From NCBI GenBank assembly GCA_964618225.1, contig CAZTWS010000003.1, positions 57,101 through 121,100 of the forward strand: DNA of 64,000 nucleotides, written 5' to 3'. This DNA comes from an uncultured Planctomycetaceae bacterium (GTDB lineage Bacteria; Planctomycetota; Planctomycetia; Pirellulales; Lacipirellulaceae). The notes beneath the pieces are model-generated. The model was not told the DNA's origin, did no database searches, and saw only the letters and a list, made by a program, of their open reading frames with translations. The translations under genes and the position numbers were made by a program. Numbering within the stretch: the first letter of the stretch is position 1; every line of letters begins with the position of its first letter. This document shows, piece by piece, positions 25,626 to 53,804 of the stretch.

Positions 25626-25638
25626 CGATTGTGAAGTA

Positions 25639-30422: not shown

Positions 30423-30490
30423 TTAGAGATATTTGAGGCCGTCCGCTTTGAGCCCCCCAAAAAAACTTCTAGGAAATCGCAATAATTTTA

Positions 30491-30520
30491 TTGACTGTGT
30501 CATTAGCCTCTAACTAGAGT
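30491..30520 (+). promoter_or_regulatory. Putative promoter (TTGACT-N18-TAGAGT)
   Basis: The hexamers lie about 40 nt upstream of ATG 30562 and are preceded by an AT-rich stretch, CGCAATAATTTTA. Confidence 0.4.
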
Positions 30521-30561
30521 GGCCTGCGTAGCTTTTTCGTTTCCATCTAGGGAGGCCGCTA

Positions 30562-31331: not shown

Positions 31332-34112
31332 CTATCGCCGACGCCACGGTATCGAACTTGCCGCCCAAGCCACGAGAACCAGAAGCAAATTAGAGGGCTC
31401 AGGAACCGCTCCACCAGCCCCTGCCGTTGGGACACCCATCTTCCTCCAGAGCACGAAATCGGCCGCATCGACCACCCCGTCGCCATTGCCGTCCGCACCG
31501 GCACCAGGAGCGACCGATTGGCCGAACGCGTTTCGCCAGATGTCGTAATCCGCGGCTTCAACGACACCGTTACGGTCGTAATCGCCCGGAATATAGGCGG
31601 CCAGCATTCCATTCGGATTGTGAGAAACCGTATCCAAATAAATCTTAGCGTCGCCCGCGCCTTTGAACCAAATCGAGTCGATCGTCACGACTGCATTGTC
31701 GATTTGCCCGTTGGCCCCCCCCGCGAATGCAATCCATTCATTGGCGTCCGCCAGGTTCCATTGGTAGAGGTGCCACTCGTTGTCGGCAATAACCTCCAAC
31801 TCGGTTCCCCATTCCAAAGCCGTATTGTCTTGCGGATCATCAATGCCAATCCAGGCCGTGACGCCCGGATCAGCCGTCTTGAGCCAGAAACCAACGTAGC
31901 CGGTGGCCTGTAGCGGCACATTGCCATCCGGGTGGGCGATCGCACCGATCCCGGAATTATGGCGAAGCTGCCAATTCGCAGAACCATCGGATACAAGATT
32001 CAACTCTTGCGAGGCAATGCCAAACCCTTGATGCTCGGTTTCGACGCGGTCGATGGTGGTGGCATTCGATAGCCCAAACGTCTGGGAAACGGGAGAGAAG
32101 TTATAGTTTCGATTGAAATGACCTTCGTCGATTTCGAAGTCATCAAGCACATTGCCGAGCCCCGGCGGAGGTGGAGGCGGAGGAGTCGAAGTGACGTGGA
32201 GAAAACCGATGCCGGAAAGCAGCGAGCTTGTGAACTGGGCACCCGAGCCTTCCGCTCCCCAAATACCTTCCGGCTGTGGCAAGCCGTTGAGGACCAAGCC
32301 ACGCACGATATCGTTTCCGGCAAAACCGAGATGCAGCACCGAGCCTCCATGAACATACACATCGGCCGAATCCGCGAGGAACGGGTTCCCGATATTAAGC
32401 TGGCCTGCTTGTACCACGGTGTCGCCCAAATAAGAATTACTGCCCGTCAAAGCCAGCGTGCCGAAGCCGGTTTTCGTCAGACCGCCATTAGTAATTGGCA
32501 CCTGGATGGCCATGTCGATGGCAGACGCCCCGTTGGATACGCTGAAGATGCGAGGCTCGCCCCCTAAATCCAGAAAGCCGCTGGCACCGGCTCCGGCACC
32601 GTTGGCAATCGTTGCCGTGCCGTTTTCATACGGGTTGAAGTTCACATGCCCTGTCATCGTGATTGCCGCAGGCGTGGAAGCGTGCGGCATGAGGTCGATT
32701 TGGTTGAATGTCAGCGTGCCGCCACCTAGTGTGAACGCATTGCCCGCATCGACCTGCAAGCGATAGACGCTCATGCTAGCCGTCCCGCTCATGGAAACTG
32801 GCGCGGAGAATTGGGCTGAAATTGCAGTCGAGGACGGATCCCGAAGAGGATCATTCGCGGCGTACTTGGGGTTATCGTAATTGATCGTCAGCGTGCCGCC
32901 CGTGATGTTCAGTGCTTCGCGAACATACAGTTTCCGAATGTTGTGCGTGCCAGACGATAACGTAATCGTCGGGTTTGCCGCGCCGCGATCCAGGATCACG
33001 GTGTCGTTCTGGCCCGAAGTAACGCCCGACCCCGCCGCCCCCGGCAGGCGTGGAGTCGGCAGTGTTTGCGTACCGATCGGTGCCACCTGGCCGGGACCGG
33101 TTACTGGTGCCACTGGCGTCTGGCCACTATTCCACTTCGTCAGTTCACTCCAATCGCCACTGGAATCGCTCACCCACAACGCAGGCACCAGGTGGTCTTT
33201 CAGAAACTCGGTGCCGCCGTTGGCCACATCGAAATCGAGATTGCTTCCACCGTTGTTAAAGCTCTGCAAACGGCCCGTGCTGGCATACTGCCAAAAATCC
33301 CAGGGATGGGCGGGGTTTGGCGGGTCGTCCCACGGACCATAAACGCTGGTCGTGTAGTCTCCCGGATTTGCAGTCTGCACGGGAATGGAGTCAGGATTAG
33401 CTTGGTTTGGCCAACGGGCAATCCACAACGTTGGGTATGCAGCAACCAGAGTAGTTTCCGTTGCGGTGTTCGCTTCGTTCTGAATGTCGCTCGCGTAATT
33501 GCCACCGATGTAAACGCCGGGACGGATGCCATAAACCTCGTAAATACGGTTCGAGAAGTCGATCGCAAACTCGGCTAGCTCCTGCCCCGTGCGTTGGCTG
33601 ATACCAGCTTCCAAATCGAAGATCGGCACCAAATAGCCGGGACGCATCCAGGCACCTGCCATCTGCATAAAGTGGTCGGCTTCATCAATACCCGTGTTGC
33701 GAATCCCATTGGAATTCAATGTCGATTCGATAATGTCCATCCGGCCGAAGTGATACGACCCGGCAAAGATGCCGGCGGCCGTCGCGCGGTTGATGTTCTG
33801 CACGAAATAGGGATCATCGTACCGCTGCGACAGCGTGTTGAGCCCATTGTTGTTGTTGGCATCGCTCTGGTTGTAGTAACCGGTCGTGCCACCTCGGCTT
33901 GCACGTAGAAAAACGAACTGGCGGTTCTCGACGTTGCGGATGTTGTTCCACGTGGTTTGCGAGATGTTTCCCTGCCAAGCCGAGATGTCGATCCCCAACG
34001 CACGAGGCTGCTGAGCATTAAGTTTCCCCACGAATGGCTGCCAAGAAAGCATGAGACCAAGCACGGCCAACAACTGCGCCCCAACGATCAATTTCCGGCC
34101 TGACGAATTCAT
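31332..34112 (-). CDS. GH25 muramidase-domain surface protein with PATR repeats, a poly-Pro linker, a CBM-like domain, a dockerin-like motif and a PEP-CTERM anchor
   Basis: ATG 34112 follows GGAGAA. GIDISAWQGNI...FVFLRASRG...YHFGR is the GH25 pattern. PPPPPPP linker is present, then DYDRNGVVEAADYDIWRN and NGDGVVDAADFVLWRK. The C-terminus is VPEPSNLLLVLVAWAASSIPWRRR. Confidence 0.85.
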   Translation of the reverse strand: MNSSGRKLIVGAQLLAVLGLMLSWQPFVGKLNAQQPRALGIDISAWQGNISQTTWNNIRNVENRQFVFLRASRGGTTGYYNQSDANNNNGLNTLSQRYDDPYFVQNINRATAAGIFAGSYHFGRMDIIESTLNSNGIRNTGIDEADHFMQMAGAWMRPGYLVPIFDLEAGISQRTGQELAEFAIDFSNRIYEVYGIRPGVYIGGNYASDIQNEANTATETTLVAAYPTLWIARWPNQANPDSIPVQTANPGDYTTSVYGPWDDPPNPAHPWDFWQYASTGRLQSFNNGGSNLDFDVANGGTEFLKDHLVPALWVSDSSGDWSELTKWNSGQTPVAPVTGPGQVAPIGTQTLPTPRLPGAAGSGVTSGQNDTVILDRGAANPTITLSSGTHNIRKLYVREALNITGGTLTINYDNPKYAANDPLRDPSSTAISAQFSAPVSMSGTASMSVYRLQVDAGNAFTLGGGTLTFNQIDLMPHASTPAAITMTGHVNFNPYENGTATIANGAGAGASGFLDLGGEPRIFSVSNGASAIDMAIQVPITNGGLTKTGFGTLALTGSNSYLGDTVVQAGQLNIGNPFLADSADVYVHGGSVLHLGFAGNDIVRGLVLNGLPQPEGIWGAEGSGAQFTSSLLSGIGFLHVTSTPPPPPPPGLGNVLDDFEIDEGHFNRNYNFSPVSQTFGLSNATTIDRVETEHQGFGIASQELNLVSDGSANWQLRHNSGIGAIAHPDGNVPLQATGYVGFWLKTADPGVTAWIGIDDPQDNTALEWGTELEVIADNEWHLYQWNLADANEWIAFAGGANGQIDNAVVTIDSIWFKGAGDAKIYLDTVSHNPNGMLAAYIPGDYDRNGVVEAADYDIWRNAFGQSVAPGAGADGNGDGVVDAADFVLWRKMGVPTAGAGGAVPEPSNLLLVLVAWAASSIPWRRR

Positions 34113-34550
34113 CCGCGGTTTCTCCAATGTTCCCCAACCAGTTATGCCCTAAAGCTAGAGTAAGCATCCACGACAAAAGCGCCAATTCAACGACCGCCAC
34201 TCGATAGGAAACTAGAGGAAGTTTTGCCACCAACTTAGAACAGGCCAGCATTTAGCTGCGCGAATGCGCGAGCATGGTGCGCGATCCTAGCCAATCACTC
34301 GAAAATGTCTGAAAAAAACACGCTCCATCCCACCGCCCACCTGGCGTGATTTGCTTGCCCAAATAGGGCGTGCGGAACATAATCAAATTACGGGACAGGG
34401 TTGCGATGAGAGAGGCTACTTCAATCGCATGCCGCGGGCGACTCTTAACCGGCAGTGCCACACATCTGCTCTCCCCAGGGTCGCCTAACATCCCCCCCTT
34501 CAACCGCGCGTGCCGTCTACGATTAGATTGAAGTAACAGAGGAGAGAAGA

Positions 34551-37259
34551 GTGAGTTCGTTTTCCGCGCACAAGATTACCATCGTCGCAGTCATCATGGC
34601 GTGCATCGCGGCAGCCTGGACAAGCGCCGCCGCTCCCGCATTAGCCCAAAGAGCACTCGGCACAGACGTCTCGTACTGGCAAGGCGAGATCACGCAAACT
34701 GCTTGGAACTACGCTTATAACAACGGCAACCGGGTGTACGCATTCGTTCGTTCTACGCGGGGCGGTACCACAGGGCTGAGTCAAACCTCTGGGACTCCTT
34801 CTCCACATTCAAGTCAGGAAACTCTCTCTCGCCGCTACGACGATTCGCGGTTCATTCAGAACATGGTCCGAGCGACCAACGCTGGGTTGATGACCGCCCC
34901 TTATCATTTTGCACGCCCGGATATCCTCACGAATACCGGTGCCGATGAAGCTGACCACTTCATGCAGATGGCTGGCATTTACATGCGCCCCGGCTATATG
35001 CTGCCCATGTACGACCTCGAAGCGGGACAAAGCGAGCGCACCGGCCAGCAGTTAGCACAATTCTCGCTCGATTTTTCCAACCGTATCTACGAGGTCATGC
35101 AAATCCGCCCGTCGATTTATGCAAACGGAAATTACATGAACTACCTCTCGAATGCAAATGCTGCAACCCGGAATGCACTCGCTCAACCGTCTTCGAATGG
35201 GCCAAGCATGGTGTCGCCCGCCTTCCCGGTCCTCTTCGCAGCTCGATACCCGGCTGGTACCGGCAACCCCTACACCGGAGACATCCAAAACCAAAACCCT
35301 AAAGATGCTGGCGGCACGCTCAGTTGGTTCTTCGGCCCTTTCGATGACTACGGCAACAGCCAGCCTTGGCACTTCTGGCAATACAGCAGCGGCGAAGCAA
35401 TCTTCGGCCCGCACGGCGATCTCACCGTCGACGGCGATATTTCCCAAGGCGACATCGAGTTTGTGCGTGACACGCTCGTACCCGCTGTTTGGTGGAATGA
35501 CTCGAGCGGCGATTGGAGCTCGCTGGCCAACTGGAACAGTGGCCAATCGGTAGTTGCGCCCGTCCCCGGCCCAGGACAAGCAACGCCTTTTGCCAGTGGC
35601 CCTCTTCCTGTTCCCCGCCTTCCCGGTGCTGCCGGAACAGGCCCCACCTCCGGCCAGTACGATACGGTGATTCTTGAGCGTCCCAATGCAAATATCACCG
35701 TCACTATTTCGACTGGCACCCACAACATTCGCAAAATGTACATGCGCGAGGCGCTAGAGATCACTGGCGGTTCGCTTACGATCAACTACAACCCCAACTA
35801 CAACAACGATTTTGATAACAACCCGAACACCAATTTCCCGAACGCATTGCGATCCGGCCCGATCTCAGCACAGTTCTCTGGCCCTGTCACACTCAGCGGC
35901 GGCAGCTTGACGGTCCACACGGTGCAAGTCGATGCTCAGAGAGTATTTACTCTCGCCGGTGGCACGCTTACGTTTGATAAAATCAATCTCATCTCGAATG
36001 CCGCGACCAAGGTTGCCGTCACGGGCGATGTAATCATCAACCCCCTGAATAACGCCACGGCCACAATCACGCGATCTGCTGCTTCTGGCACGCTCGACCT
36101 CATGGGCGGCAATCGAACGTTCACGGTCGGAAACGGTTCCGCGGATGTCGATTTCTCTGTGGCCGTGCCGATTGCCAACGGCGGCTTCACGAAAGCTGGC
36201 CTCGGTATCATGCGACTCGATGCGGCCAATACGTTCACTGGTCCGGTCACGGTTAACGGCGGAACGCTTCGCTATGGTCATTCTTCGGGCTTGAACGATG
36301 CCACACTGGTTACGATCAATGCCGGAGCCCAACTCGACATGAACGGCATCAGCGATACGATCGCCGGTTTAGCCGGCACATCCGGCGGCATCCTGCAACG
36401 AGGAACTGCAAATCTGACGTTAGGTGGCACCGCTGGCAACACTACTTTTGCAGGCCTCATCACTGGTTCGGGAGCGCTAATTAAAAATGGCTCCGCCACG
36501 CAAACGCTTTCCGGAAACAATACGCTCGGCAATGTCACCGTGAACGCCGGTGGGCTTATGCTGAACGGTGTGAACACGACAAGCCTGGTAACCGTAAACG
36601 GCGGCGCGCTCGGCGGTTCCGGATCCGTTTCTGGCAACGTTACTTTGAACAATGGTTCAACGCTAACGCCCGGAAACGGCGTGGGCCTGTTCACTGTCGG
36701 CTCTCTTAACGTAAACGCCGGTTCGCAACTCCAGTTCGATGTAAGCACCAGCTTCAACCAAGACCTGCTGCTAGTCTTAAACCAACTTCAATTGAACGCC
36801 GGTTCTGTGAGCATCCTCGATTCGACCGGCGAACTATCGCCCGGCGTCTATCCGCTCATCGCCTATGGCAGCTTGGTTGGCGACGTTGCGAACCTGGGCA
36901 CACCCGTCGGTCCTGCGGGCTTCGAATACCAGTTGCTCGATTCCGGGACCGTCATCAGCCTGGCCGTGCTCCCCATCGGTGTCCCAGGAGATTTCAATAA
37001 CGATGGCACGGTTGACAGTGCCGATTACGTGATTTGGAAAAAGTACAACGGCACCGAACAAGAACTACCGAATAGCGGTAGCCTAAGCGGCACGGTTGGA
37101 GATGGTCATTACAACCTATGGCGCGAAAACTTCGGGCGAGTAGCTGAATCTGGCGGCGGCTCCAGTGGAAACGGAAACGTCCCCGAACCAACAAGTGCCC
37201 TCCTAGCCGCAGCCGCCATCTTGTTTGGGCTAACCCTCCGACGCCGAATAATTCGCTAG
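34551..37259 (+). CDS. GH25 muramidase-domain surface protein with PATR repeats, a dockerin-like motif and a PEP-CTERM anchor; paralog of 31332-34112
   Basis: GTDVSYWQGEI...YAFVRSTRG...YHFARPD (GH25). Long collinear identity with the paralog, for example ADHFMQMAG..MRPGY and LPGAAG.G.TSGQ.DTVIL. Also FNNDGTVDSADYVIWKK. The C-terminus is VPEPTSALLAAAAILFGLTLRRRIIR. Confidence 0.85.
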   Translation: MSSFSAHKITIVAVIMACIAAAWTSAAAPALAQRALGTDVSYWQGEITQTAWNYAYNNGNRVYAFVRSTRGGTTGLSQTSGTPSPHSSQETLSRRYDDSRFIQNMVRATNAGLMTAPYHFARPDILTNTGADEADHFMQMAGIYMRPGYMLPMYDLEAGQSERTGQQLAQFSLDFSNRIYEVMQIRPSIYANGNYMNYLSNANAATRNALAQPSSNGPSMVSPAFPVLFAARYPAGTGNPYTGDIQNQNPKDAGGTLSWFFGPFDDYGNSQPWHFWQYSSGEAIFGPHGDLTVDGDISQGDIEFVRDTLVPAVWWNDSSGDWSSLANWNSGQSVVAPVPGPGQATPFASGPLPVPRLPGAAGTGPTSGQYDTVILERPNANITVTISTGTHNIRKMYMREALEITGGSLTINYNPNYNNDFDNNPNTNFPNALRSGPISAQFSGPVTLSGGSLTVHTVQVDAQRVFTLAGGTLTFDKINLISNAATKVAVTGDVIINPLNNATATITRSAASGTLDLMGGNRTFTVGNGSADVDFSVAVPIANGGFTKAGLGIMRLDAANTFTGPVTVNGGTLRYGHSSGLNDATLVTINAGAQLDMNGISDTIAGLAGTSGGILQRGTANLTLGGTAGNTTFAGLITGSGALIKNGSATQTLSGNNTLGNVTVNAGGLMLNGVNTTSLVTVNGGALGGSGSVSGNVTLNNGSTLTPGNGVGLFTVGSLNVNAGSQLQFDVSTSFNQDLLLVLNQLQLNAGSVSILDSTGELSPGVYPLIAYGSLVGDVANLGTPVGPAGFEYQLLDSGTVISLAVLPIGVPGDFNNDGTVDSADYVIWKKYNGTEQELPNSGSLSGTVGDGHYNLWRENFGRVAESGGGSSGNGNVPEPTSALLAAAAILFGLTLRRRIIR

Positions 37260-37423
37260 CCGTTGCAATACTCTAGCTGGCGGCACCCGTATGCGCAATA
37301 ACGTGAGCAAGTTGCGCACTGCCCCCTGAAAAGCGCCTCGAAACTCAGTTATCCTAGAGGTCTTCAGCCCTCGGCACTCTGCCACGGGCGGCGCTCTGAG
37401 AACTGCGTTTCAAGAGGTACATC

Positions 37424-38947
37424 GTGAATCGAGCCAAATTCGTCGGAATCGTTCTCTTAGCCGCCTTAACAGGCCTTGTTAGCTTCACGGTACAAGCGGC
37501 CGAAGCGCCGCCCGAAGTACCCCGCGAATTTCGCGGCGTGTGGATCGCCACGGTCTCGAACATCGACTGGCCCTCGCGCCCAGGTCTGCCTGCCGACAAA
37601 CAGAAAGCCGAGCTGGTGGCGATGCTCGACAAAGCGGTCGAGCTCAACCTCAACGCGATCATCTTCCAAATCCGCCCCGCGGCCGATGCTCTCTACCCCT
37701 CGAAGCTCGAGCCGTGGTCCCCTTACCTTTCCGGCACCATGGGCAAACCGCCGGAGCCGTTTTACGATCCGCTCGAATTCGCCATCACCGAGGCCCATCG
37801 CCGTGGTTTGCAGTTGCACGTGTGGTTCAACCCGTACCGCGTACGCATGGCCGGCGCTCGCGAACAAGCATCGCCCGATCATTCGAGCAACACACGGAAA
37901 GATATCGTCCGCCAATACGGCGATTACCTGTGGTTCGACCCGGGCGAACCCGAGGCGGTCAAGCACTTCATCAACGTGCTCACCGATGTCGTGAAGCGTT
38001 ACGATATAGACGGCGTCCACATCGACGACTATTTCTATCCGTATCAAATCGTCAAGGACGGCAAAACGGTTCCGTTCCCCGATGATGAAAGCTATGCCCG
38101 CGCCACGAAGCGTGGCAAGAAAATCGAACGCGACGACTGGCGGCGGCAAAACGTGAATCAGCTCGTCGAGCAAATGTACGAAGCTGTAAAACGTGAGAAG
38201 TCTTGGGTGCAAGTCGGCATTAGCCCCTTCGGAATTTGGCGTCCGGGCCACCCCCCCGGCATCACCGGCCTCGATCAATACAGCACGCTCTATGCTGATG
38301 CACGCCTCTGGTTCCAGGAAGGCTGGCTCGACTACATGACCCCGCAGCTTTACTGGCAAGTCGATAGCAAAGGCCAAAGCTATCCCAAGCTGCTCGCCTG
38401 GTGGACAGAGCAAAACGCCAAGAATCGCCACCTGTGGCCGGGTAACTTCACGTCGAAAGTTCGCCGCTCGGCCAACACCCCCGAATCGAACTCCGCCTGG
38501 TCGGCCGAGGAAGTCATCCGGCAAATCGAAGCTACCCGCGCCCAGCCGGGCGCAACCGGCAACATCCATTTCAGCATGAAAGCACTGATGGGCAACTACG
38601 ACGGCCTGGCCGACAAACTCAAAGCAGGTGTTTACGCCGAACCGGCCCTCGTGCCCGATTCTCCCTGGCTAAGCCGCGAAACGCCCACCAAGCCGAAGAT
38701 CAACGTCGAAGGCCGCGGCAACTCGGTGGCGATCGATCTCGACGCCAGCGGCAAGCCGCCTTGGCAGTGGCTCATCCGCGTGCAGACTAACGATGGCTGG
38801 AAGAACCTCATCGTTCCCGGCTCTGAAGTCCACCAAGCCGTAACGCTCGACGACGGTAAACAAATCAAATCCGTAACCGTCGCCGGCGTATCGCGACTCG
38901 GCCGCGTCGGCCGCCCTGTGAAAACAACCATCAAGAACGCAAACTAA
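37424..38947 (+). CDS. Glycosyl-hydrolase-like 10 (GHL10) family protein, YddW/DigH-like
   Basis: REFRGVWIATVSNIDWPS...LNAIIFQIRPAADALYPS..EPWS..L.G...P..DPLEF...AHRRGLQLHVWFNPYR is the YddW/UPF0748 pattern. An N-terminal signal peptide is present. Confidence 0.8.
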   Translation: MNRAKFVGIVLLAALTGLVSFTVQAAEAPPEVPREFRGVWIATVSNIDWPSRPGLPADKQKAELVAMLDKAVELNLNAIIFQIRPAADALYPSKLEPWSPYLSGTMGKPPEPFYDPLEFAITEAHRRGLQLHVWFNPYRVRMAGAREQASPDHSSNTRKDIVRQYGDYLWFDPGEPEAVKHFINVLTDVVKRYDIDGVHIDDYFYPYQIVKDGKTVPFPDDESYARATKRGKKIERDDWRRQNVNQLVEQMYEAVKREKSWVQVGISPFGIWRPGHPPGITGLDQYSTLYADARLWFQEGWLDYMTPQLYWQVDSKGQSYPKLLAWWTEQNAKNRHLWPGNFTSKVRRSANTPESNSAWSAEEVIRQIEATRAQPGATGNIHFSMKALMGNYDGLADKLKAGVYAEPALVPDSPWLSRETPTKPKINVEGRGNSVAIDLDASGKPPWQWLIRVQTNDGWKNLIVPGSEVHQAVTLDDGKQIKSVTVAGVSRLGRVGRPVKTTIKNAN

Positions 38948-38949
38948 CT

Positions 38950-40842: not shown

Positions 40843-40843
40843 C

Positions 40844-42418: not shown

Positions 42419-42583
42419 CCAACTCGCTCCGCGAGATGAAACCTTCCGCCCAATCATAACTCACAACCCAGCCCCCCCGCTAACCGCACTCAGTTGATAG
42501 CGTAGCGACCGTGCGGTTAAAATAACCCGACTCGATTGGATCTCTGACTAACCATAAGGCGAATTAGAAAGCCCCCTACTTAC

Positions 42584-43648: not shown

Positions 43649-43720
43649 TTCGTCTTTTTAACTTCCCGCAACCAACGGGTTCGGAGTCAACTTCCCCACA
43701 GGCGCATTGAAAACAACACC

Positions 43721-44758
43721 GTGCAACTCACTTACCAAAAATTCGAACTCCCCCTAAAGCACGTCTTCACCATTTCACGCGGGTCGGTGTCGGTGCAAGA
43801 AACACTCGTCGTTCAACTATCGGCCCACGGCCAGCATGGTTACGGCGAATCAACGACCAACAACTTTTACGGTGCTACGATCCCCAACATGACTTCGGCG
43901 ATCGAAAGCGTTCGCCCCATCATCGAAGGTGCGTTCCCCGACGACCCGCTGAAGCTTATTGCCAACATTGCCGATAAACTCCCGAACGAAAAATACGCGA
44001 AATTCGCGCTCAACGCGCTCGACGGTGCCATTCACGATCTCTGGGGCAAACTGCAAGGTGCCCCCGTGTATCGCCTGTGGGGACTCACGACCGACCGCAT
44101 CCCGATGTCCGACTACACGCTCGGCATCGATACGCCCGAGAAAATGGTCGCCAAGCTCAACGAAATGCCGGGTTGGCCCGTCTATAAAATCAAGCTCGGC
44201 ACACCAGACGACCTCGGCATCATCCGCGAACTACGCAAACATACCGATGCGCTGTTTCGCGTCGATGCTAATTGTGGGTGGACGGCCGAACAAACAATCG
44301 AATACGCACCGATCCTCAAGGATATGAACGTCGAGTTCATCGAACAGCCCCTCCCGCCGGAAGACGAAGAGGGTGCTCGCAAAGCCTACGAGGGTTCCGT
44401 GCTCCCGCTCATTGCCGATGAAAACTGCGTGTTCGAGGAAGACGTCGACCGCTGCGCCGGCAAGTTCCACGGCATCAACATCAAACTCGTCAAGTGCGGC
44501 GGTCTGACCACGGCCAGACGCATGGTCACACGCGCCCGAGAACTCGGATTGCAGGTCATGGCCGGTTGCATGACCGAATCCACCGTCGGCATCTCGGCGC
44601 TCGCGCAACTCCTGCCGCTCTTAGATTATGTAGACATGGACGGCGCGGTCCTGTTGGCGAAAGACATCGCCACCGGTGTCCGCTTGGAGCGCGGCCAGTG
44701 CATCTATCCGCCGCGCAATGGAACAGGCGTTGAACTGATCGATGGTCCGTTGAAGTAG
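43721..44758 (+). CDS. Enolase-superfamily dipeptide epimerase (L-Ala-D/L-Glu epimerase / DgcA-like)
   Basis: YKIKLG, FRVDANCGW, FIEQPL, IADE and NIKLVKCGG blocks match the muconate-lactonizing-enzyme subgroup (MLE) / dipeptide-epimerase (AEE) layout. Confidence 0.8.
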   Translation: MQLTYQKFELPLKHVFTISRGSVSVQETLVVQLSAHGQHGYGESTTNNFYGATIPNMTSAIESVRPIIEGAFPDDPLKLIANIADKLPNEKYAKFALNALDGAIHDLWGKLQGAPVYRLWGLTTDRIPMSDYTLGIDTPEKMVAKLNEMPGWPVYKIKLGTPDDLGIIRELRKHTDALFRVDANCGWTAEQTIEYAPILKDMNVEFIEQPLPPEDEEGARKAYEGSVLPLIADENCVFEEDVDRCAGKFHGINIKLVKCGGLTTARRMVTRARELGLQVMAGCMTESTVGISALAQLLPLLDYVDMDGAVLLAKDIATGVRLERGQCIYPPRNGTGVELIDGPLK

Positions 44759-44818
44759 TAGAACGAGCGCTTCGCGCCCGTTCGATCCCATTCCCAACTC
44801 ACGCTCGCTCATACAACC

Positions 44819-46879: not shown

Positions 46880-46904
46880 TCGCTCCCCAACGAAAGGCCC
46901 AGCC

Positions 46905-48161
46905 ATGTTTGCTCACCTAAAACCACTCGCCACCGCCATGCTACTCGCGCTCGCATGTAACTTTGCATCCGCCGATGAACCCAAGAAGCCCGTAAGCCGC
47001 GAGCCCATCGTCCTCACCGATGCCGCTCGCGAACTGCACCGCAAGTCGCTTCTCATCGACGGCCACAACGACATGCCCTGGGAAATCCGCAAACAGAGCA
47101 ATTCCAACTTCGATAAGCTCGACATTTCCCAAAAACAGCCCACGCTGCAAACCGATATCCCCAAGCTCCGCGAGGGCGGCGTCGGCGCACAGTTCTGGTC
47201 CGTGTGGGTTCCCGTCGAAGCCGGTTACCGTGGCGAAGCGCTCTCCACCACGCTCGAGCAAATCGACCTCGTCAAGCGAATGGTCGCCCGCTACCCCGAA
47301 ACGTTCGAACTCGCTTACACGGCAGACGACATCGAACGAATCCACAGCGAAGGAAAAATCGCCAGCCTCATTGGCATCGAAGGCGGCCACTGCATCGAGG
47401 AATCCCTCGTGGTGCTCCAAAAGCTCTACGACCTCGGTGCCCGCTACATGACACTCACCCACACCGACTCGCTCAATTGGGCCGACTCGGGCACCGACAA
47501 GGAAAAAGCCCACGGCCTCACGCCGTTTGGCAAAGATGTCGTCCGCAAAATGAACGAAATCGGCATGCTCGTCGATCTCTCGCACGTCTCCGCCAAAACC
47601 ATGCACGACGCGCTCGATGTCGCCACCGCCCCCGTCATCTTCTCCCATTCCTCTGCCGTGGGCGTCGCCGATCATCCCCGCAACGTGCCAGATGATGTGC
47701 TCAAACGCATCCAAGAAAAAGACGGCGTCGTCATGGTCAACTTCTTCTCCGGCTACATCGTCCCCGATGCGGTACGCACCGTGGCCGAGGGCATGGACCT
47801 CGAACGAAAACTTCTCCAGGTCGATAAGCTGAGCGACCAGGAAGTCGCCCGCGAAATGCGCCGCTGGAAGGCCAAAAACCCTTACCCTCGTGGCACCATC
47901 CACGACCTGCTCGACCACATCGACCACATCGCCAAAGTCGCCGGCGTCGAGCACGTCGGCATCGGCTCCGACTACGACGGCGTCTCCGTCCTGCCAACCC
48001 AACTTGAAGACGCCAGCACCTACCCCTACATCACGCAAGGTCTCCTCGATCGCGGTTATTCCGAGTCCGAAATCCAAGCCATCCTTGGCGGCAACCTGTT
48101 GCGTGTGTTCCAAAAAGCAGAAGCAGTCGCCGCCCAAACGCCTAAAAAACCTACGCCCTAG
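46905..48161 (+). CDS. M19 membrane dipeptidase
   Basis: The LIDGHNDMPWEIR signature and the rest of the TIM-barrel dipeptidase layout are present. Signal peptide is MFAHLKPLATAMLLALACNFASA. Confidence 0.85.
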   Translation: MFAHLKPLATAMLLALACNFASADEPKKPVSREPIVLTDAARELHRKSLLIDGHNDMPWEIRKQSNSNFDKLDISQKQPTLQTDIPKLREGGVGAQFWSVWVPVEAGYRGEALSTTLEQIDLVKRMVARYPETFELAYTADDIERIHSEGKIASLIGIEGGHCIEESLVVLQKLYDLGARYMTLTHTDSLNWADSGTDKEKAHGLTPFGKDVVRKMNEIGMLVDLSHVSAKTMHDALDVATAPVIFSHSSAVGVADHPRNVPDDVLKRIQEKDGVVMVNFFSGYIVPDAVRTVAEGMDLERKLLQVDKLSDQEVAREMRRWKAKNPYPRGTIHDLLDHIDHIAKVAGVEHVGIGSDYDGVSVLPTQLEDASTYPYITQGLLDRGYSESEIQAILGGNLLRVFQKAEAVAAQTPKKPTP

Positions 48162-48174
48162 CCGGAGTAGCCAC

Positions 48175-49872
48175 GTGCTCGAACGCGCAGAATACGATCG
48201 ATTCCGAGTCGCACCAACCGACCCGTCCACGGTCCGTTGCAGCGATGTCGAAACCACGCTCAAAAAGTTGGCCGATTCCTCGAGCGGCCAACTAAAAATC
48301 GAACGCTTTTCAGAATCGCTCGAAAAACGCCCCATCTATTTGGCAACGCTCGGCACCGGCCCCAAGCGCGTCTTCCTCTGGTCGCAAATGCACGGCGATG
48401 AGCCCACGCACACCTCCGTGCTGCTCGACCTCATGAGTTACCTGCTGCAAACGCCAGCCGAGCCGCTGGCCGAGGAGATCCTCTCGAACTGCACGCTGCT
48501 CATGATCCCCATGCTCAACCCCGACGGTGCCGAGCGCTACCAGCGCTTCAACGCCCAGGGCATCGATATCAACCGCGACTGGCGACGCCTCGCCACGCCC
48601 GAAGGCCGCACGCTGCTTCGCGCCGCTAAAACACTCAAGCCGCAGTTCGGCTTCAATCTGCACAACCAAAACGCCCGCACCACGGTCGGCCGCCCTCCCC
48701 TGCCCGCCGCCGTTTCGGTGCTCGCCCCCGCGCCAGATGCCTCGCGCAAAGTACCGCCCTCCATGCAAGCCGCCAAACAAATGTGTACCGTCTTCGTCGA
48801 GGCCGTGCGGCCGCACGCCAAAGGCATGATCTCCCGTTACGACGACTCGCACGAACCACGCGCCTTCGGCGATGGCATCCAATCGCTCGGCATCTCCACC
48901 ATGCTTGTCGAAGCGGGCGGTTGGCCCGAGGCCGACGTCGAGCCCATGACCCGGCTCCACTTTCACGGCCTGCTCAACACGCTCCACGCCATCGCCACCG
49001 ATCGCCACCTCACGGCCGACGCTAAAGTTTACGAAGACCTGCCCGAGTCGAGCTCCCGTCGCCTCAACGATTGCTACATCACCAAGGCCCAAGTGTACGA
49101 TGCAAAAATCGGCGAACCGTTCACCGCCGATCTGCTCATCAACCAAACCCACTCATCGCGTCTCTGGGTCACCAATCATCGCGACGGCAAAATCATCGAC
49201 TTCGGCGACGTGCCCCCTGCCCCCGCCGCCGTCACCATCAATGCCGACAATTCCCTCCTGCTTCCCGGCCAGTTCACGCTCGTCGCCGATTGGAAACCCG
49301 GCACCCAGCTCAGCGAACAACAAATCAATAATCTCCTCGCCCACGGCACCACCACGGTCATCGGCTTGGTAAACCTTGCTGATCAGGCCGCCATCGAGGC
49401 CATGACCAAGCCGCTCTCGCTACCCTTCAATTGGGCCTATGTGGGCGATGCCGACCACATGGACGATCTCAACGGCACCGAGCTCCTCGAACGCATCGCG
49501 CTCGCCGCCACCCATGGCATACTGGCCGTCGTTTCCGTCGGCACCGACGAAACCCTGTGGCGATACGTCACCAACTTCAACCTGTCGCTTCTCAAACCCA
49601 ACCCACTCGCCGCCAGCCCAGCCACCACGTTCGAGGCGGCCGCCCGCCAAAGCTGGGCCACCGCCAACGCGCTCAAGCTCGGCGCTCTACGTGGCCACAT
49701 CAATCGCGACTGCATCGCCGACCTGGCCTTCGTCACCGCGCCCAACCCGGCCGATGTTGCCGCCCCACTCGATTGGTCCAAGCTCAACCGCGTCATGGTC
49801 GCCGGCGAAACGGTTTGGGAACACGGCAAACGCACCGGCCCACCTTGCGGTATCCAACTCCGCCGCGCCTAA
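48175..49872 (+). CDS. M14 zinc carboxypeptidase (MpaA-like) with an additional ~260-aa C-terminal domain
   Basis: WSQMHGDEPT (HxxE zinc site), MLNPDGAERY and GIDINRDW are present. GTG 48175 follows GGAG; the longer track ORF from 47890 overlaps the dipeptidase gene. The C-terminal half resembles an amidohydrolase fold that lacks the HxH motif. Confidence 0.75.
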   Translation: MLERAEYDRFRVAPTDPSTVRCSDVETTLKKLADSSSGQLKIERFSESLEKRPIYLATLGTGPKRVFLWSQMHGDEPTHTSVLLDLMSYLLQTPAEPLAEEILSNCTLLMIPMLNPDGAERYQRFNAQGIDINRDWRRLATPEGRTLLRAAKTLKPQFGFNLHNQNARTTVGRPPLPAAVSVLAPAPDASRKVPPSMQAAKQMCTVFVEAVRPHAKGMISRYDDSHEPRAFGDGIQSLGISTMLVEAGGWPEADVEPMTRLHFHGLLNTLHAIATDRHLTADAKVYEDLPESSSRRLNDCYITKAQVYDAKIGEPFTADLLINQTHSSRLWVTNHRDGKIIDFGDVPPAPAAVTINADNSLLLPGQFTLVADWKPGTQLSEQQINNLLAHGTTTVIGLVNLADQAAIEAMTKPLSLPFNWAYVGDADHMDDLNGTELLERIALAATHGILAVVSVGTDETLWRYVTNFNLSLLKPNPLAASPATTFEAAARQSWATANALKLGALRGHINRDCIADLAFVTAPNPADVAAPLDWSKLNRVMVAGETVWEHGKRTGPPCGIQLRRA

Positions 49873-49902
49873 CCTTCTTCTCGATCCACCAAGGCAAGCC
49901 CC

Positions 49903-50658
49903 ATGCTCAATAAAATCTGGTTCTGCCTGCTGTGCATCGGCATCGTTTACGGCTTCGCCAAAGCATCGTACCAAACCGCAACCGGCCAATTGCCTCCGGC
50001 TCCTGCCGCGGAAGCTTCAGACGCCGCTCCCGCGGAAACAGCACAAGATCAATCCGCTTACACCATCATGGGCCGCAGCCTGACCGATGCTTCGCTCAAT
50101 GCGGCAGAATCAGCGGTCAAAATTTGCATCACTCTCATCGGCATCATGGCGCTCTGGCTCGGCCTCATGAACATCGCCAAAGATGCCGGCCTCATCGATG
50201 CCTTTGCCCGTCTCCTGAACCCGCTCATGCGATGGTTATTCCCAGGCATCCCCGATGGCCACCCGGCTCAAGGTGCCATCCTCATGAATCTCTCGGCCAA
50301 CATGATCGGCCTCGACAACGCGGCCACGCCCATGGGCCTCAAAGCCATGACCGAGCTGCAAACCCTCAACCCCGTCAAAGACACCGCCACCAACAGCATG
50401 GCCATGTTCCTGGCCATCAACAACAGCAGCGTCACGATCATTCCCATCGCCGTCATCGGCTACCGAGCGGCCGAGGGCAGCCTCAATCCTACCGAGCCGC
50501 TGGCCGGCACGATCATCGCCACCACCATCAGCACCGTGGCAGCCGTCCTCATCACCAAATGGCTCGCACACCGGCCTGGCTACTACGTCCCACCCGAGCG
50601 CGTGCCTCAATCGAGCGATGAAACGCTCTCCGAAAACGAAGGAGAGTCGCTTGCCTGA
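49903..50658 (+). CDS. spmA: SpmA-like nucleoside-recognition (Gate) domain membrane protein
   Basis: The MLNKIWFCLLCIGIVYG N-terminus and polytopic hydrophobic profile are as in SpmA. Confidence 0.7.
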   Translation: MLNKIWFCLLCIGIVYGFAKASYQTATGQLPPAPAAEASDAAPAETAQDQSAYTIMGRSLTDASLNAAESAVKICITLIGIMALWLGLMNIAKDAGLIDAFARLLNPLMRWLFPGIPDGHPAQGAILMNLSANMIGLDNAATPMGLKAMTELQTLNPVKDTATNSMAMFLAINNSSVTIIPIAVIGYRAAEGSLNPTEPLAGTIIATTISTVAAVLITKWLAHRPGYYVPPERVPQSSDETLSENEGESLA

Positions 50659-51214
50659 AATACGCCCCATCCTCGATTTCATCAGCAGTTGGGCCATTCC
50701 CGCGCTCATGCTGCTCATCATCGTTTGGGGGGCCGTCAAACGCGTCCCTCTCTACGAATCCTTTGTCACCGGTGCCAAGGAAGGATTCAACATCGCGATC
50801 ATGATCATTCCCTACCTGGTCGCCATGCTGTTCGTCGTCAAAGTGTTCATGGCAAGCGGCATCTTCGACGACATCAAATACGGGTTCGTACTTGCCATGC
50901 AATCTGTTGGCCTCGGTAGTTATGCCGAAACATTCGACCTATTACCGCTTGCACTCACCAAGCCCCTAACCGGCGGCGGTGCGAGAGCCGTCATGGTCGA
51001 TATGTTCCAACAGCACGGCCCCGACAGCTTCCTCGGAATGACCGCCTCGATCATGATGGGCAGCACCGAAACCACCTTCTACGTCCTCACCGTCTACTAC
51101 GGCTCGATCCAAGTCAAGAAAATCCGCCATACGCTTGCCGCCTGCTTACTGACCGATGTCATTGCCGTCGTCACCGCAATCATTCTCGGCTATGTGCTAT
51201 TCGGCAACCGCTAA
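50651..51214 (+). CDS. spmB: SpmB-like nucleoside-recognition domain membrane protein
   Basis: ISSWAIPALMLLIIVWGAVKRVPLYESFVTGAKEGFNIAI closely follows the SpmB N-terminal pattern. TTG 50651 follows GGAGAG. The track start at 50618 is also possible. Confidence 0.7.
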   Translation: MPEIRPILDFISSWAIPALMLLIIVWGAVKRVPLYESFVTGAKEGFNIAIMIIPYLVAMLFVVKVFMASGIFDDIKYGFVLAMQSVGLGSYAETFDLLPLALTKPLTGGGARAVMVDMFQQHGPDSFLGMTASIMMGSTETTFYVLTVYYGSIQVKKIRHTLAACLLTDVIAVVTAIILGYVLFGNR

Positions 51215-51252
51215 CGAACGAACACTCGCACTAAAAACATCGATTTCCACTC

Positions 51253-52284
51253 GTGCAATTGACGAAACCCAAAGCACTCCGTCCCGGCGATACCATCGGC
51301 GTTGTCGTCCCCGCTAGCCCGATCGACCCCGAACGCATCGAACGGGCATTTGGCCGCGTCCGCGATCTCGGCTACCAACTGAAAACCTACGGCGACATCT
51401 ACCGCCGCACCGGCTACCTCGCCGGAGATGATGACACCCGCGCCGCCGAACTCATGGCCGCCTTCGCCGACCCGCAAACCTCGGCCGTCTGGTGCGCTCG
51501 CGGCGGCTACGGCGTCACGCGGCTCCTCAACCGAATCGACTTCGACACGATCCGCCACAACCCAAAAACCTTCGTCGGCTTCAGCGACATCACCCTCCTA
51601 CACGTCGCTATCCAACAGCGGGCCCAGCTAATCACCTTCCACGGCCCCAACCTGCAAGACGGCTTCGGCAAACCCGAACCCATGCCCTCCGCCACCGCCA
51701 CCACCCTCTGGCAAATGGTCAGCGCATCCCCGTCGATCCCCACCGACTCGCTCTCCCAGCCGCTTGCCGGCTTAGCTCAGAACTCCCCCATCCCCTACGA
51801 CTTCACCAACATCCACCCCCTCGACCTCCGCACCATCACCCCCGGCATCGCCCGCGGCCCACTCACCGGCGGAAACCTGGCCGTGTTCAACAGCCTCCTC
51901 GGTACGCCCTTCGAGCCCGACACCACGGGCCACATCCTCTTCCTCGAAGATGTCAGCGAACGTGCCTATCGCATCGACCGTTATCTCTCGCAACTCACGC
52001 TTGCCGGCAAACTGCAATCCGCCGCCGGCATACTCCTCGGCACGTTCTCCTACGACGACGATGAACCAGCCGACACTCAGGAAGCCGTCAACGAAGTGCT
52101 AAACCACTACTGCCGACCCCTCGGCATCCCCGTCCTCGCCGGCTTCCCCGCCGGCCATGCCCAATACAACCTCGCACTCCCCATGGGTGCCGAAATAGAA
52201 ATAGACGCCACCCATCACCAAGTCCAAATCTGCCAACCACCTGCCGTAACTTCCGCCCCCCAGCCCCCAGCCCCTAGCCCCTAG
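51253..52284 (+). CDS. ldcA: LD-carboxypeptidase (peptidase S66, LdcA-like)
   Basis: PGDTIGVVVPASP, GYLAGDDDTRAAELMAAFADP, ARGGYGVTRLL and GFSDITLLH (nucleophile Ser) are present, with a C-terminal GFPAGH. Confidence 0.85.
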   Translation: MQLTKPKALRPGDTIGVVVPASPIDPERIERAFGRVRDLGYQLKTYGDIYRRTGYLAGDDDTRAAELMAAFADPQTSAVWCARGGYGVTRLLNRIDFDTIRHNPKTFVGFSDITLLHVAIQQRAQLITFHGPNLQDGFGKPEPMPSATATTLWQMVSASPSIPTDSLSQPLAGLAQNSPIPYDFTNIHPLDLRTITPGIARGPLTGGNLAVFNSLLGTPFEPDTTGHILFLEDVSERAYRIDRYLSQLTLAGKLQSAAGILLGTFSYDDDEPADTQEAVNEVLNHYCRPLGIPVLAGFPAGHAQYNLALPMGAEIEIDATHHQVQICQPPAVTSAPQPPAPSP

Positions 52285-52289
52285 CCCCC

Positions 52290-53678
52290 ATGGATTCCCT
52301 TCATACCTTCATCGAGAAAGCCGCCAACCAGTTCTCGATCCCCCTGGTGATCGTCCTGCTGGTCACCAGCGTTTACTTCACGATCCGGCTTCGCTTCATT
52401 CAAATCTTTCGCTTCCGCGACGCCATTCGCGAAACGATCGCCAGCCAGCAGTCGGGCGCGAACGGCCCCCTCTCGCCGCTCCAAGCATTTCTCACATCAC
52501 TCGCCGCCACCATCGGTGTCGGCAACATCGCCGGCGTTGCCACGGCCATCGTCCAAGGTGGCCCAGGTGCCATGTTTTGGATCTGGTGCTATGGCTTTCT
52601 CGCCATGCCCACCAAGTTTGCCGAAGCATCGCTCGGCATGCACTTTCGCGTCGCCAAAGGCGATGTCGTCCTCGCCGGCCCCATGTACTACTTGCGCGAT
52701 GGCCTGCGTTCCCCCTCGCTCGCTTGGATCTACGCACTACTTGCCGGCATGTCGGTCCTCTTCACCACGCCGTTCACCCAACCAAACTCCGTCGCCGATG
52801 CAGTCGGCAGCCAACTTGCTGAACAAGATATTTCTCTCGGCACATCGCAAATCGGCCCGTTCACCGTCAATCTCGATCATCTCACGATCGGCCTCGTGCT
52901 CGGCGTCCTCACTTGGCTCGTCACCATTCGAGGTGTGAAAGCACTGGGTCGCGCCGCCGAAAAACTGGCTCCGCTCAAAGTCGGCCTCTATCTCCTCGGC
53001 GGCCTCATCGTGTTCGTCACGCACATTGGTAACTTGCCCGAGGTATTCCGACTCATCTTCACCGAAGCCTTTTCGCTTCGCGCCGCCACGGGCGGAACCT
53101 TTGGCTACGCCATCATCGTCGCCATGCGCTACGGCGTAGCCCGCGGTGTATATGCCAACGAAGCAGGCTACGGCACCGCCGCCGTCGCCTACGGCACGGC
53201 CAAAAGCCAGCATCCCGAACAACAAGGCCTCGCCGCCATGACCGAGGTGTTCATCATCTCGTTCATCACCTCCACGATCAGCGGCCTCTCCATCCTGCTC
53301 ACCGGCGTCTGGAACTCCGGACCCACCGGCTCTGCCGTCGTCGCCCGCGCCTTCAACCAGCCCATGCCCGGCATCGGCGGATGGATGGTCGCCGTCTCCA
53401 TGTTCCTGTTCGGCTACACCGTGCTCATCGGCTGGGGATACTACGGCGAACAATTCTTCGAATACATCTTCGGCCCCCGCTCCGTCGTGCCATACCGCTG
53501 GATCTACATCCTGCTCATCCCCTTCGGCGCTCTCTTCAAAGTCGACCTCGTTTGGAATTGGGGCGACATCGTCAACGGCCTCCAAGTCTTCCCCAACATC
53601 ATCGGCCTCTTCGCCCTCAGCGGCCTCGCCGCCATGTACGCCAAACGCAAATCGCCAACCGAGCTAGAATCCATATGA
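52290..53678 (+). CDS. Alanine/glycine:cation symporter (AGCS family)
   Basis: FQAFLTSLAATIGVGNIAGVATAIVQGGPGAMFWIW is the AGCS signature region. The protein is a polytopic membrane protein. Confidence 0.85.
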   Translation: MDSLHTFIEKAANQFSIPLVIVLLVTSVYFTIRLRFIQIFRFRDAIRETIASQQSGANGPLSPLQAFLTSLAATIGVGNIAGVATAIVQGGPGAMFWIWCYGFLAMPTKFAEASLGMHFRVAKGDVVLAGPMYYLRDGLRSPSLAWIYALLAGMSVLFTTPFTQPNSVADAVGSQLAEQDISLGTSQIGPFTVNLDHLTIGLVLGVLTWLVTIRGVKALGRAAEKLAPLKVGLYLLGGLIVFVTHIGNLPEVFRLIFTEAFSLRAATGGTFGYAIIVAMRYGVARGVYANEAGYGTAAVAYGTAKSQHPEQQGLAAMTEVFIISFITSTISGLSILLTGVWNSGPTGSAVVARAFNQPMPGIGGWMVAVSMFLFGYTVLIGWGYYGEQFFEYIFGPRSVVPYRWIYILLIPFGALFKVDLVWNWGDIVNGLQVFPNIIGLFALSGLAAMYAKRKSPTELESI

Positions 53679-53804
53679 GCCAGGGCGTCCCCACCCCCGT
53701 GTACCAAGACAACCCCTTAGCGGCGGCGGCAACGCCGTCCAACCAGCGAACGGCATAATAACAGAACGGTAAACCTAAAAACGCTCTACTATTGAGCCTT
53801 GAAG

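Follow-up and report, generated by a model that had tools for sequence, protein, structure and literature searches.

A block of 14 long open reading frames (ORFs; here, g1 to g14) at positions 31332 to 53678 of a 64,000-nucleotide stretch of planctomycete DNA (the window: assembly GCA_964618225.1, contig CAZTWS010000003.1, positions 57,101 to 121,100 of the forward strand) probably forms a peptidoglycan and muropeptide catabolic locus whose work is divided between two compartments; we infer its substrates, the order of its steps, and the source of its peptidoglycan from sequence. The first gene, g1, lies on the minus strand and diverges from g2, after which g2 through g14 all follow on the plus strand with intergenic gaps of 0 to 166 bp. 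A run of 13 consecutive, co-oriented genes from cell wall and D-amino-acid families, colinear in relatives, is far beyond chance.

Families were assigned with Pfam and NCBIfam (NCBIfam equivalog cut-offs serving as membership thresholds), export was read from the N termini, and motifs were read in the sequences. Conservation was followed by tblastn of all window proteins against 80 loci (labeled L plus a number), anchored on g6 and drawn from one genome per species; L087 and L088 were added via g10 homologues. All 14 ORFs match Pfam or NCBIfam families and have intact catalytic motifs, and the block contains no ORF of any size that lacks a family. The family calls of a preliminary description of this DNA hold for every ORF, with the GH25, GHL10, M14, and S66 proteins in the families named there. 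Signal peptides are present in g1 and g2 (GH25), g3 (GHL10), g8 (a beta-lactamase-like/PG-binding/S11 fusion), and g9 (M19) and absent from g5 (GH3), g6, g7, g10 (M14), and g13 (S66), a pattern that is repeated in their homologues and that splits the locus into exported, membrane (AmpG, the Gate pair, and AgcS), and cytoplasmic sets.

From these assignments, the following route can be proposed. Outside the cytoplasm, the two surface-anchored muramidases (g1 and g2) would cut glycan, the DigH-like g3 would cleave peptide-free strands, the PG-binding double serine peptidase g8 would trim D-Ala-D-Ala ends and cross-links, and g9 would hydrolyze small peptides with a terminal D-amino acid. At the membrane, g4 (AmpG) would bring in N-acetylglucosamine (GlcNAc)–N-acetylmuramic acid (MurNAc) peptides, g14 (AgcS) would bring in alanine, and the Gate pair (g11 and g12) would probably handle another small product. 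Within the cytoplasm, the NagZ-type g5 would take off GlcNAc, g13 (LdcA) would take the terminal D-Ala off tetrapeptides, the M14 domain of g10 would most likely free diaminopimelate from the tripeptide, and the DgcN/DgcA-like pair (g6 and g7) would make D-glutamate usable, either via N-acetyl-D-Glu (from free D-Glu) or as L-Ala-D-Glu.

Exported enzymes

The exported GH25 muramidases are g1 (31332 to 34127, minus strand, 931 amino acids [aa]) and g2 (34551 to 37259, plus strand, 902 aa). Both surpass the Pfam GH25 cut-off of 27 bits (g1, 1.6e-18 and 68.1 bits; g2, 2.2e-12 and 48.1 bits), both also match PATR and Dockerin_1 (with a beta-helix/PATR region in g1 and PATR repeats in g2), and both retain the GH25 motifs D-x-S-x-W-Q-G and D-L-E (DISAWQG and FDLEAG in g1; DVSYWQG and YDLEAG in g2). 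The two are paralogues, 50% identical over 580 aa. Each has a signal peptide and a C terminus of the form VPEP-hydrophobic-RRR (VPEPS...WRRR in g1, VPEPT...RRRIIR in g2), such that the features of PEP-CTERM surface proteins (PEP motif, hydrophobic helix, basic tail, and signal peptide) are found in both; the Pfam PEP-CTERM model itself gives g2 18.7 bits, below its cut-off of 20.7, and leaves g1 unmatched. These ends place g1 and g2 outside the cell as putative surface-anchored lysozymes, the location already proposed for them. Since three related loci (L001, L003, and L005) have one GH25 copy each, co-oriented with the block, the arrangement in the window would be a duplication with one copy inverted.

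The next gene, g3 (37424 to 38947, plus strand), encodes an exported GHL10 glycosidase (Pfam GHL10, 1e-67 and 228.9 bits against a cut-off of 27.9) homologous to Escherichia coli DigH (YddW), with which it shares its family, its export, and 34% identity over 385 aa (E value, 4e-67); its signal peptide recurs in seven homologues. E. coli DigH degrades denuded (peptide-free) glycans (PMC12288456). Unlike that enzyme, which is a divisome-associated housekeeping protein, g3 heads a catabolic block and has about 110 aa of extra C-terminal sequence. In locus L016, a SpoIID-plus-dockerin protein (1944 to 3569) lies upstream of GHL10, at the position held by GH25 in the window, which looks like nonorthologous replacement of one secreted glycan-cleaving enzyme by another.

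The exported 686-aa protein g8 (44819 to 46879, plus strand) joins a class-A beta-lactamase/PBP-A-like domain, a PG_binding_1 domain, and an S11 DD-carboxy/endopeptidase (Pfam Beta-lactamase2, 3.3e-73; PG_binding_1, 1.1e-15; Peptidase_S11, 7.8e-68 and 228.9 bits against a cut-off of 27.6). Active-site motifs occur in both catalytic domains, as SLIK/SDN/KTG in the class-A-like domain and as STTK/SGN/KTG in the S11 domain. Matches of the C-terminal domain in the PDB are DD-carboxypeptidases (E values down to 8e-41), and those of the N-terminal domain are 4EWF and Tll2115, the latter a PBP-A and not a lactamase. Against the class A beta-lactamase model NF033103, g8 scores 1.5e-35 and 122.6 bits, below the cut-off of 200, and the equivalent of the deacylating Glu166 in the omega loop could not be placed by eye in the sequence. 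The signal peptide is kept in homologues, and 16 of the 80 loci have the fusion at full length behind the DUF1611-epimerase pair.

Exported peptidase g9 (46863 to 48161, plus strand; probable start, ATG at 46905) belongs to the M19 dipeptidases (Pfam Peptidase_M19, 3.7e-118 and 394.8 bits against a cut-off of 26). It aligns at 360 bits with Sco3058 of Streptomyces coelicolor (PDB 3ID7), and the metal and catalytic residues (HxD, E, H, H, and D, within HND, EGGH, LSH, SHS, and SDYDG) are all matched. The ligands of the binuclear zinc site are thus kept, unlike in the PvdM-type inactive form, which has been described as an M19 subfamily (PMC9305348). All nine M19 homologues inspected begin with a signal peptide, indicating that this enzyme works outside the cytoplasm, unlike PepD, so that a reading of M19 as a stand-in for PepD is not supported. 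The putative dipeptidase is closest to Sco3058, and Cummings et al. reportedly found in 2010 that Sco3058 prefers L-Xaa-D-Xaa dipeptides; in contrast to Sco3058, every M19 protein of these loci, g9 included, bears a signal peptide.

Membrane proteins

The 630-aa g4 (38950 to 40842, plus strand) is a major facilitator superfamily permease whose best family is AmpG (NCBIfam TIGR00901, 3.7e-54, matched in two stretches), with 184 bits against a cut-off of 350; scores against other AmpG equivalog models also fall below their cut-offs (110.5 versus 656 and 98.9 versus 756 bits). Between its two matched stretches, the central loop is interrupted by an insert ~190 aa long (residues ~178 to 368; window positions 39480 to 40055) with transmembrane-like segments on both flanks. 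The insert, which has no Pfam match and no PDB sequence match, is present in L001, L005, L009, L012, and L016 and missing from L003, L015, L087, and L088.

Two small Gate-domain membrane proteins follow further downstream: g11 (49903 to 50658, plus strand; SpmA/YjiH-like), with four transmembrane-like segments and a Pfam Gate match of 2.3e-14 and 54.2 bits (cut-off, 29.6), and g12 (50618 to 51214, plus strand; SpmB/YjiG-like), with three such segments, a Gate match below the cut-off (4.4e-05, 24.3 bits), and a weak match to NCBIfam PRK10519 (YjiG; 7.4e-06). The pair is kept in six loci (L001, L003, L004, L015, L087, and L088), and g11 is putatively one half of a small-solute transporter. Gate pairs are linked to peptidases elsewhere: to an S11 carboxypeptidase in the dacB-spmA-spmB genes of Bacillus subtilis, and to an amidohydrolase-fold dipeptidase in yjiH-yjiG-iadA of E. 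coli, although the pairwise similarity of YjiH and YjiG to g11 and g12 is weak. The last gene of the block, g14 (52290 to 53678, plus strand), encodes an AgcS-family sodium:alanine symporter (Pfam Na_Ala_symp, 3.8e-105), whose TIGR00835 score of 381.9 bits exceeds the cut-off of 272.65.

Two loci with a core of the Bythopirellula type (L009, 14271 to 15950; L015, 14318 to 16000) have a 560-aa protein of the Na_H_antiporter family (NhaC-like) between the S11 fusion and M19; this protein may carry a product of the exported peptidases across the membrane.

Cytoplasmic hydrolases

Cytoplasmic g5 (40796 to 42418, plus strand; probable true start, ATG at 40844) is a GH3 beta-N-acetylhexosaminidase of the NagZ type (Pfam GH3, 1.4e-81). 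Its best NCBIfam model is beta-N-acetylhexosaminidase NF003740 (187.8 bits; cut-off, 207), which outscores every other GH3 model by about 100 bits, and the NagZ motif KH(F/I)PG(H/L)GxxxxD(S/T)H is present as KHFPGHGDTHQDSH at residue 205. Also cytoplasmic, g13 (51253 to 52284, plus strand) is an LdcA-like LD-carboxypeptidase with both S66 domains (N, 7.5e-39 and 133.1 bits; C, 3.4e-38 and 131.4 bits) and the GFSD, LED, and GHA motifs that hold the Ser-Glu-His residues; against the muramoyltetrapeptide carboxypeptidase model NF008424, it scores 6.1e-55 and 186 bits, below the cut-off of 378.

The third cytoplasmic hydrolase, g10 (48175 to 49872, plus strand, 565 aa), has two domains. Its start is the GTG at 48175, with GGAG 7 nucleotides upstream, rather than 47890, the 90 upstream codons being a spurious overlap with g9. 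Residues 1 to 290 form an intact M14 zinc carboxypeptidase/amidase domain (Pfam M14, 2.3e-16 to 3e-16), in which the HxxE, H, and E residues (H73, E76, H163, and E246) are invariant in 32 homologues; the AlphaFold model has a mean confidence (pLDDT) of 85.7, and Foldseek pairs its N-terminal domain with M14 carboxypeptidases (E value, 3e-13). The protein had been described as MpaA-like, a label that its score against the MpaA model NF007897 (16.3 bits; cut-off, 157), its 28% identity to E. coli MpaA over 108 aa, and its attached second domain do not bear out. That second domain (residues 295 to 565; window positions 49057 to 49872) is a truncated amidohydrolase-like domain of about 270 aa: a model of residues 291 to 565 (pLDDT, 88.4) matches the folds of D-aminoacylase, N-acyl-D-Glu deacylase, the inactive CRMP, and NagA (TM scores of 0.5 to 0.65; E values of ~1e-9), and Amidohydro_1 or Amidohydro_3 matches occur in 8 of the 32 homologues. 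After residue 295, no His is invariant or nearly so among the 32 homologues, and the HxH/His/His/Asp metal-ligand set was not found; a domain so short and devoid of conserved His is unlikely to be a metal hydrolase of the canonical kind. We considered it as the missing amidase and dropped it, given the truncation of its amidohydrolase-like fold and the lack of conserved His ligands.

The architecture of ~565 aa is kept in more than 100 homologues, and g10 co-occurs with LdcA in L001, L003, L004, L014, L087, and L088, which would fit an enzyme that acts next after LdcA by taking diaminopimelate off the tripeptide. Some homologues bear the JGI label "predicted deacylase," and there is a weak match to an M14-type acetylornithine deacetylase. 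A role for g10 as the N-acetyl-L-Glu deacetylase that finishes the DgcN-DgcA route is only a minor possibility, and we rejected it as the assignment, since g10 occurs alongside LdcA and the core loci, which retain DgcN-DgcA, lack it.

The DUF1611-epimerase pair

Between GH3 and the S11 fusion lie g6 (42584 to 43648, plus strand), a DgcN-like DUF1611 protein and putative cytoplasmic D-glutamate N-acetyltransferase, and g7 (43721 to 44758, plus strand), an enolase-superfamily protein (MR_MLE_N/C) that would act as an epimerase or racemase on N-acyl-glutamate. The genes are separated by 73 bp, and the pair is kept in 51 of the 65 loci that have room for it. For g6 (Pfam DUF1611_N, 5.8e-30; DUF1611, 7.9e-67), the top NCBIfam model is DgcN NF041892 (1.9e-85; 286.7 bits, below the cut-off of 480); identity to the PGAP-annotated DgcN proteins of Vibrio tritonius and Ruegeria TM1040 is 36 to 37% over the full length, and some homologues with 79 to 83% identity carry the JGI name "D-glutamate N-acetyltransferase." For g7, DgcA NF042940 reaches 228.5 bits (cut-off, 400), versus 150.2 bits for YcjG NF011708 (cut-off, 343). 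Its best PDB match is BT1313 of Bacteroides (3IJI, 217.8 bits), and its identities are 32 to 34% to DgcA, 32% to YcjG, 36% to BT1313, and 41% to an epimerase of Persicobacter, its closest relative outside the planctomycetes, which adjoins GH3 and lacks DUF1611.

These comparisons leave two readings of the pair. In the route formed by EC 2.3.1.312 and EC 5.1.1.25, D-Glu is converted to N-acetyl-D-Glu and then to N-acetyl-L-Glu (PMC11747546, PMC10845958); g6 and g7 resemble the DgcN-DgcA systems of marine Proteobacteria and haloarchaea in that DUF1611 is followed by an enolase-superfamily racemase (the gene order is the same in Vibrio and Ruegeria) and in that, as in Vibrio, an alanine symporter is nearby. 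Unlike those systems, both proteins fall below the equivalog cut-offs, no D-amino-acid transaminase adjoins them, they are set in a cell wall degradation block, and g7 is no closer to DgcA than to YcjG and BT1313. The constant pairing of the epimerase with DUF1611 favors the Dgc route, which we regard as the likelier function of the pair; that g7 is a dipeptide epimerase of the YcjG type, acting on L-Ala-D/L-Glu, is less likely. The best scores, to DgcA and DgcN, suggest that the pair acts on free D-glutamate and not on L-Ala-D-Glu. The families given earlier for these two genes (DUF1611 and an epimerase) therefore stand, while an attribution to YcjG is not supported as such, the pair scoring best as DgcN/DgcA and the sequences by themselves being nondiscriminating. 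The D-x-D motif, to which the amino group of the dipeptide binds, was dropped as a discriminator between dipeptide epimerases and DgcA: it is present in g7 as VDMDG, and annotated DgcA proteins retain it as DLDG. DgcA and YcjG are themselves 46 to 47% identical.

On plasmid pMA35 of Vibrio tritonius (L081, 1475 to 7844), dgcN-dgcA and a D-amino-acid transaminase gene stand back to back with genes for a sodium:alanine symporter and alanine racemase, a tight cluster for D-amino-acid catabolism that has its AgcS link in common with the window. A recycling route proposed for Bacteroides (AmiA, YkfC, and BT1313) lies partly outside the cytoplasm and uses enzymes that differ from those of E. coli (PMC4600125). 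The window resembles it in the affinity of g7 to BT1313 and differs from it in that NlpC/P60 amidases adjoin the Bacteroides epimerase; NlpC/P60 and DUF1611 are not common to both loci.

Conservation of the block

Conservation as a block, which the preliminary description had left to be checked in relatives, was found at several levels: the genes are colinear in the closest relatives, and a core is kept in distant Pirellulales. (i) The full order GH25–GHL10–AmpG–GH3–DUF1611–epimerase–Bla/S11–M19–M14–Gate–Gate–S66–AgcS occurs in L001, L003, L087, and L088, with fragments of it on the cut contigs L002, L004, and L005. (ii) The core from g3 to g9 (GHL10–AmpG–GH3–DUF1611–epimerase–Bla/S11–M19) occurs at 49 to 64% identity in L009, L012, L015, and L016; these more distant Pirellulales have different flanks and extra inserted genes, and the persistence of the core despite the differing flanks indicates selective retention of the block. 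(iii) At greater distances, no more than smaller combinations are left, such as the DUF1611–epimerase–Bla/S11 triad (L025, L032, L041, L059, and L069), a DUF1611–epimerase–M19 triad (L007), and DUF1611–Bla/S11–M14–S66 in Aeoliella (L014). Parts of the block are borne by cultivable relatives, Aeoliella and Bythopirellula. Genes added inside the blocks of relatives encode an NhaC-family transporter, a GT2 protein with DUF4922, DUF1559 and PEP-CTERM proteins, and the SpoIID-plus-dockerin protein; no amidase was found among them. In the long-contig metagenome assemblies L087 and L088, several block genes (GH3, DUF1611, M19, AgcS, and the S11 fusion) are each broken up over two or three ORFs, most likely through frameshift errors of long-read assembly rather than as pseudogenes.

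Missing steps and competing explanations

Several observations weigh against a peptidoglycan catabolic locus. Pfam and NCBIfam scans of the block recovered no Amidase_2 or Amidase_3, NlpC/P60, AnmK, MurK/MurQ, or Mpl, and the same amidase and MurNAc genes were not found in six relatives with the block (for L087 and L088, neighbors were judged from precomputed Pfam labels), so that the block does not cover the path from MurNAc-peptide to free peptide. The absence of a recognizable amidase and of an anhydro-MurNAc kinase or etherase had been remarked on before and is confirmed here and in the relatives, at the expense of the accompanying claim of a complete pathway; the MurNAc-L-Ala amidase and MurNAc catabolism must be encoded outside the block. 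M19 is exported and M14 and LdcA, which would yield L-Ala-D-Glu, are cytoplasmic, so the reaction that frees D-Glu has no assigned place. The equivalog cut-offs are missed by AmpG, NagZ, DgcN, DgcA, and LdcA, and g10 is not recognizable as MpaA. E. coli AmpG transports anhydro-muropeptides, which GH25 enzymes do not produce; because these enzymes are hydrolases, however, AnmK may be unneeded. Finally, unrelated downstream sugar genes (DUF1080, DUF4432, and GFO) are also syntenic in the closest relatives, such that conservation at that distance is not specific to the block.

With the block read as catabolic, what it degrades has to be weighed. We lean toward foraging on foreign cell wall over housekeeping recycling, because the muramidases have PEP-CTERM and dockerin regions, a muramidase gene is duplicated, and genes for re-use are absent. 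A stronger version, which we put forward tentatively, is a dedicated utilization locus for feeding on the walls of other bacteria (prey or necromass), with surface lysozymes coupled to import and full mineralization, DgcN-DgcA as the missing link to D-glutamate catabolism, and at least one of three parts (the M14/amidohydrolase-like fusion, the AmpG insert, or the Gate pair) performing a step that has no recognized gene, such as detaching the stem peptide from MurNAc or importing fragments that contain D-Glu. That the locus instead recycles or remodels the cell's own wall, as an AmpG-NagZ-LdcA route gathered in one place with GH25 and GHL10 proteins as autolysins, seems unlikely. Each intracellular step is indeed a step of self-recycling, DigH and S11 are housekeeping enzymes in E. 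coli, and the triad of DgcN, DgcA, and the S11 fusion commonly occurs across Planctomycetota with no lysozyme; yet own-wall turnover is usually the task of lytic transglycosylases, the muramidases here have features usual in surface-displayed proteins (dockerins, long beta-helix stretches, and PEP-CTERM ends), their gene is duplicated in the window, no Mpl ligase or other re-use step is present, and the end steps (D-Glu conversion and the alanine symporter) are catabolic.

Less plausible again is a neighborhood of separate modules that share no pathway, in which secreted lysozymes serve antagonism or predation, AmpG and NagZ form an amino-sugar module, and DgcN, DgcA, S11, M19, M14, LdcA, and AgcS scavenge dissolved D-amino-acid peptides. 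Such borders could be drawn at the 165-bp gaps that precede g3 and g6, near a terminator-like hairpin (42234 to 42258) and a promoter-like site (42494 to 42523), and sub-blocks do occur apart in L007, L014, L025, and L069, just as unrelated downstream genes share the synteny of the closest relatives. The promoter and terminator scan is nevertheless uninformative, with 4 promoter-like sites against a shuffled expectation of 5.9; the g3-to-g9 core crosses the proposed border and is kept in distant relatives with other flanks, and every module acts on one polymer. Sensing of or defense against beta-lactams, in which AmpG and NagZ supply an inducer, the class-A-like domain of g8 is a beta-lactamase, and M19 hydrolyzes carbapenems as renal dipeptidase does, would account for the SxxK, SDN, and KTG motifs and the 1.5e-35 match to the class A model, and induction of AmpC in enterobacteria does require AmpG and NagZ. 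We consider it very improbable: the beta-lactamase model stays below its cut-off, the nearest structures include the nonlactamase Tll2115, neither an AmpR-type regulator nor AmpD is present, and the lysozymes, DgcN/DgcA, LdcA, M14, and AgcS are left unexplained.

Host and genomic surroundings

The best homologues come from metagenome-assembled genomes of Lacipirellulaceae and other Pirellulales, and the host is a planctomycete of soil or water belonging to the family Lacipirellulaceae. The window's content is typical of planctomycetes, with DUF1559/N-terminal-methylation proteins, many PEP-CTERM proteins, DUF1080, and GFO oxidoreductases. Upstream of the block (21690 to 31251) is a series of secreted or surface proteins: a PEP-CTERM protein of 815 aa, a pair of DUF1559/N-terminal-methylation proteins, and another three of the PEP-CTERM kind (28365 to 31251), one with Golvesin_C. 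In L001, the GH25 gene comes after homologues of the final two. Downstream (54261 to 58637), DUF1080 (3-keto-disaccharide hydrolase family), DUF4432, a GFO/IDH/MocA oxidoreductase, and a xylose-isomerase-like TIM-barrel protein keep their synteny to the block in both L087 and L088. An Rfam scan of positions 28 to 55 kb returned neither a riboswitch nor any other RNA family. GC skew is strongly negative on the plus (coding) strand from 42000 to 58000 (−0.14 to −0.27 per 2-kb window) and much weaker elsewhere.

The start of the window is occupied by a CRISPR array (845 to 13233) of 172 identical 35-nucleotide repeats (CTTCAATGTGGCCGCGACTGATCTGCCGCGGAAAG) at a spacing of ~72 bp, with ~171 spacers. 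Adjoining it on the minus strand (13450 to 20533) is a cas operon resembling type I-U/I-G sets, composed of a Cas4-Cas1 fusion (13450 to 15225), GSU0054-family (15888 to 17441) and GSU0053-family (17444 to 18703) proteins, and two further ORFs (18603 to 19661 and 19484 to 20533).

Discussion

All parts of the block belong to known families, and its intracellular logic is that of muropeptide recycling in E. coli, with which it shares an AmpG-family permease, a GH3 of the NagZ type that carries the Asp-His motif, an S66 LdcA, an M14 protein, and an enolase-superfamily epimerase for N-acyl-Glu, the intracellular enzymes being predicted to be cytoplasmic. The differences from E. coli are numerous: the planctomycete genes are clustered rather than scattered; AmpD, AnmK, MurQ, and Mpl are missing from the block; M14 is part of a two-domain fusion that is not recognizably MpaA; the epimerase has a DUF1611 partner; an exported M19 takes the part of dipeptidase; and secreted hydrolytic muramidases replace lytic transglycosylases. 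What is new is the arrangement, that is, a conserved block that starts with surface lysozymes, has a catabolic end, contains a DgcN/DgcA-like pair, and includes three unstudied architectures. No published description of such a locus in Planctomycetota was found in the literature searched, whose coverage was incomplete, making this weak evidence of absence.

The three architectures (the Bla/PGB/S11 fusion, the M14 protein with its amidohydrolase-like domain, and AmpG with its insert) are candidates for biochemistry, and the block as a whole offers a testable operon in cultivable relatives. It also links the recently described DgcN-DgcA route to the most obvious natural source of D-glutamate. 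Peptidoglycan and D-amino acids make up a large, slow-turning share of bacterial necromass in soil and sea, whose degraders and their genes are poorly known; by joining secreted lysozymes, a muropeptide importer, and the handling of D-Glu and D-Ala, the block supplies a marker set with which such degraders may be sought in metagenomes.

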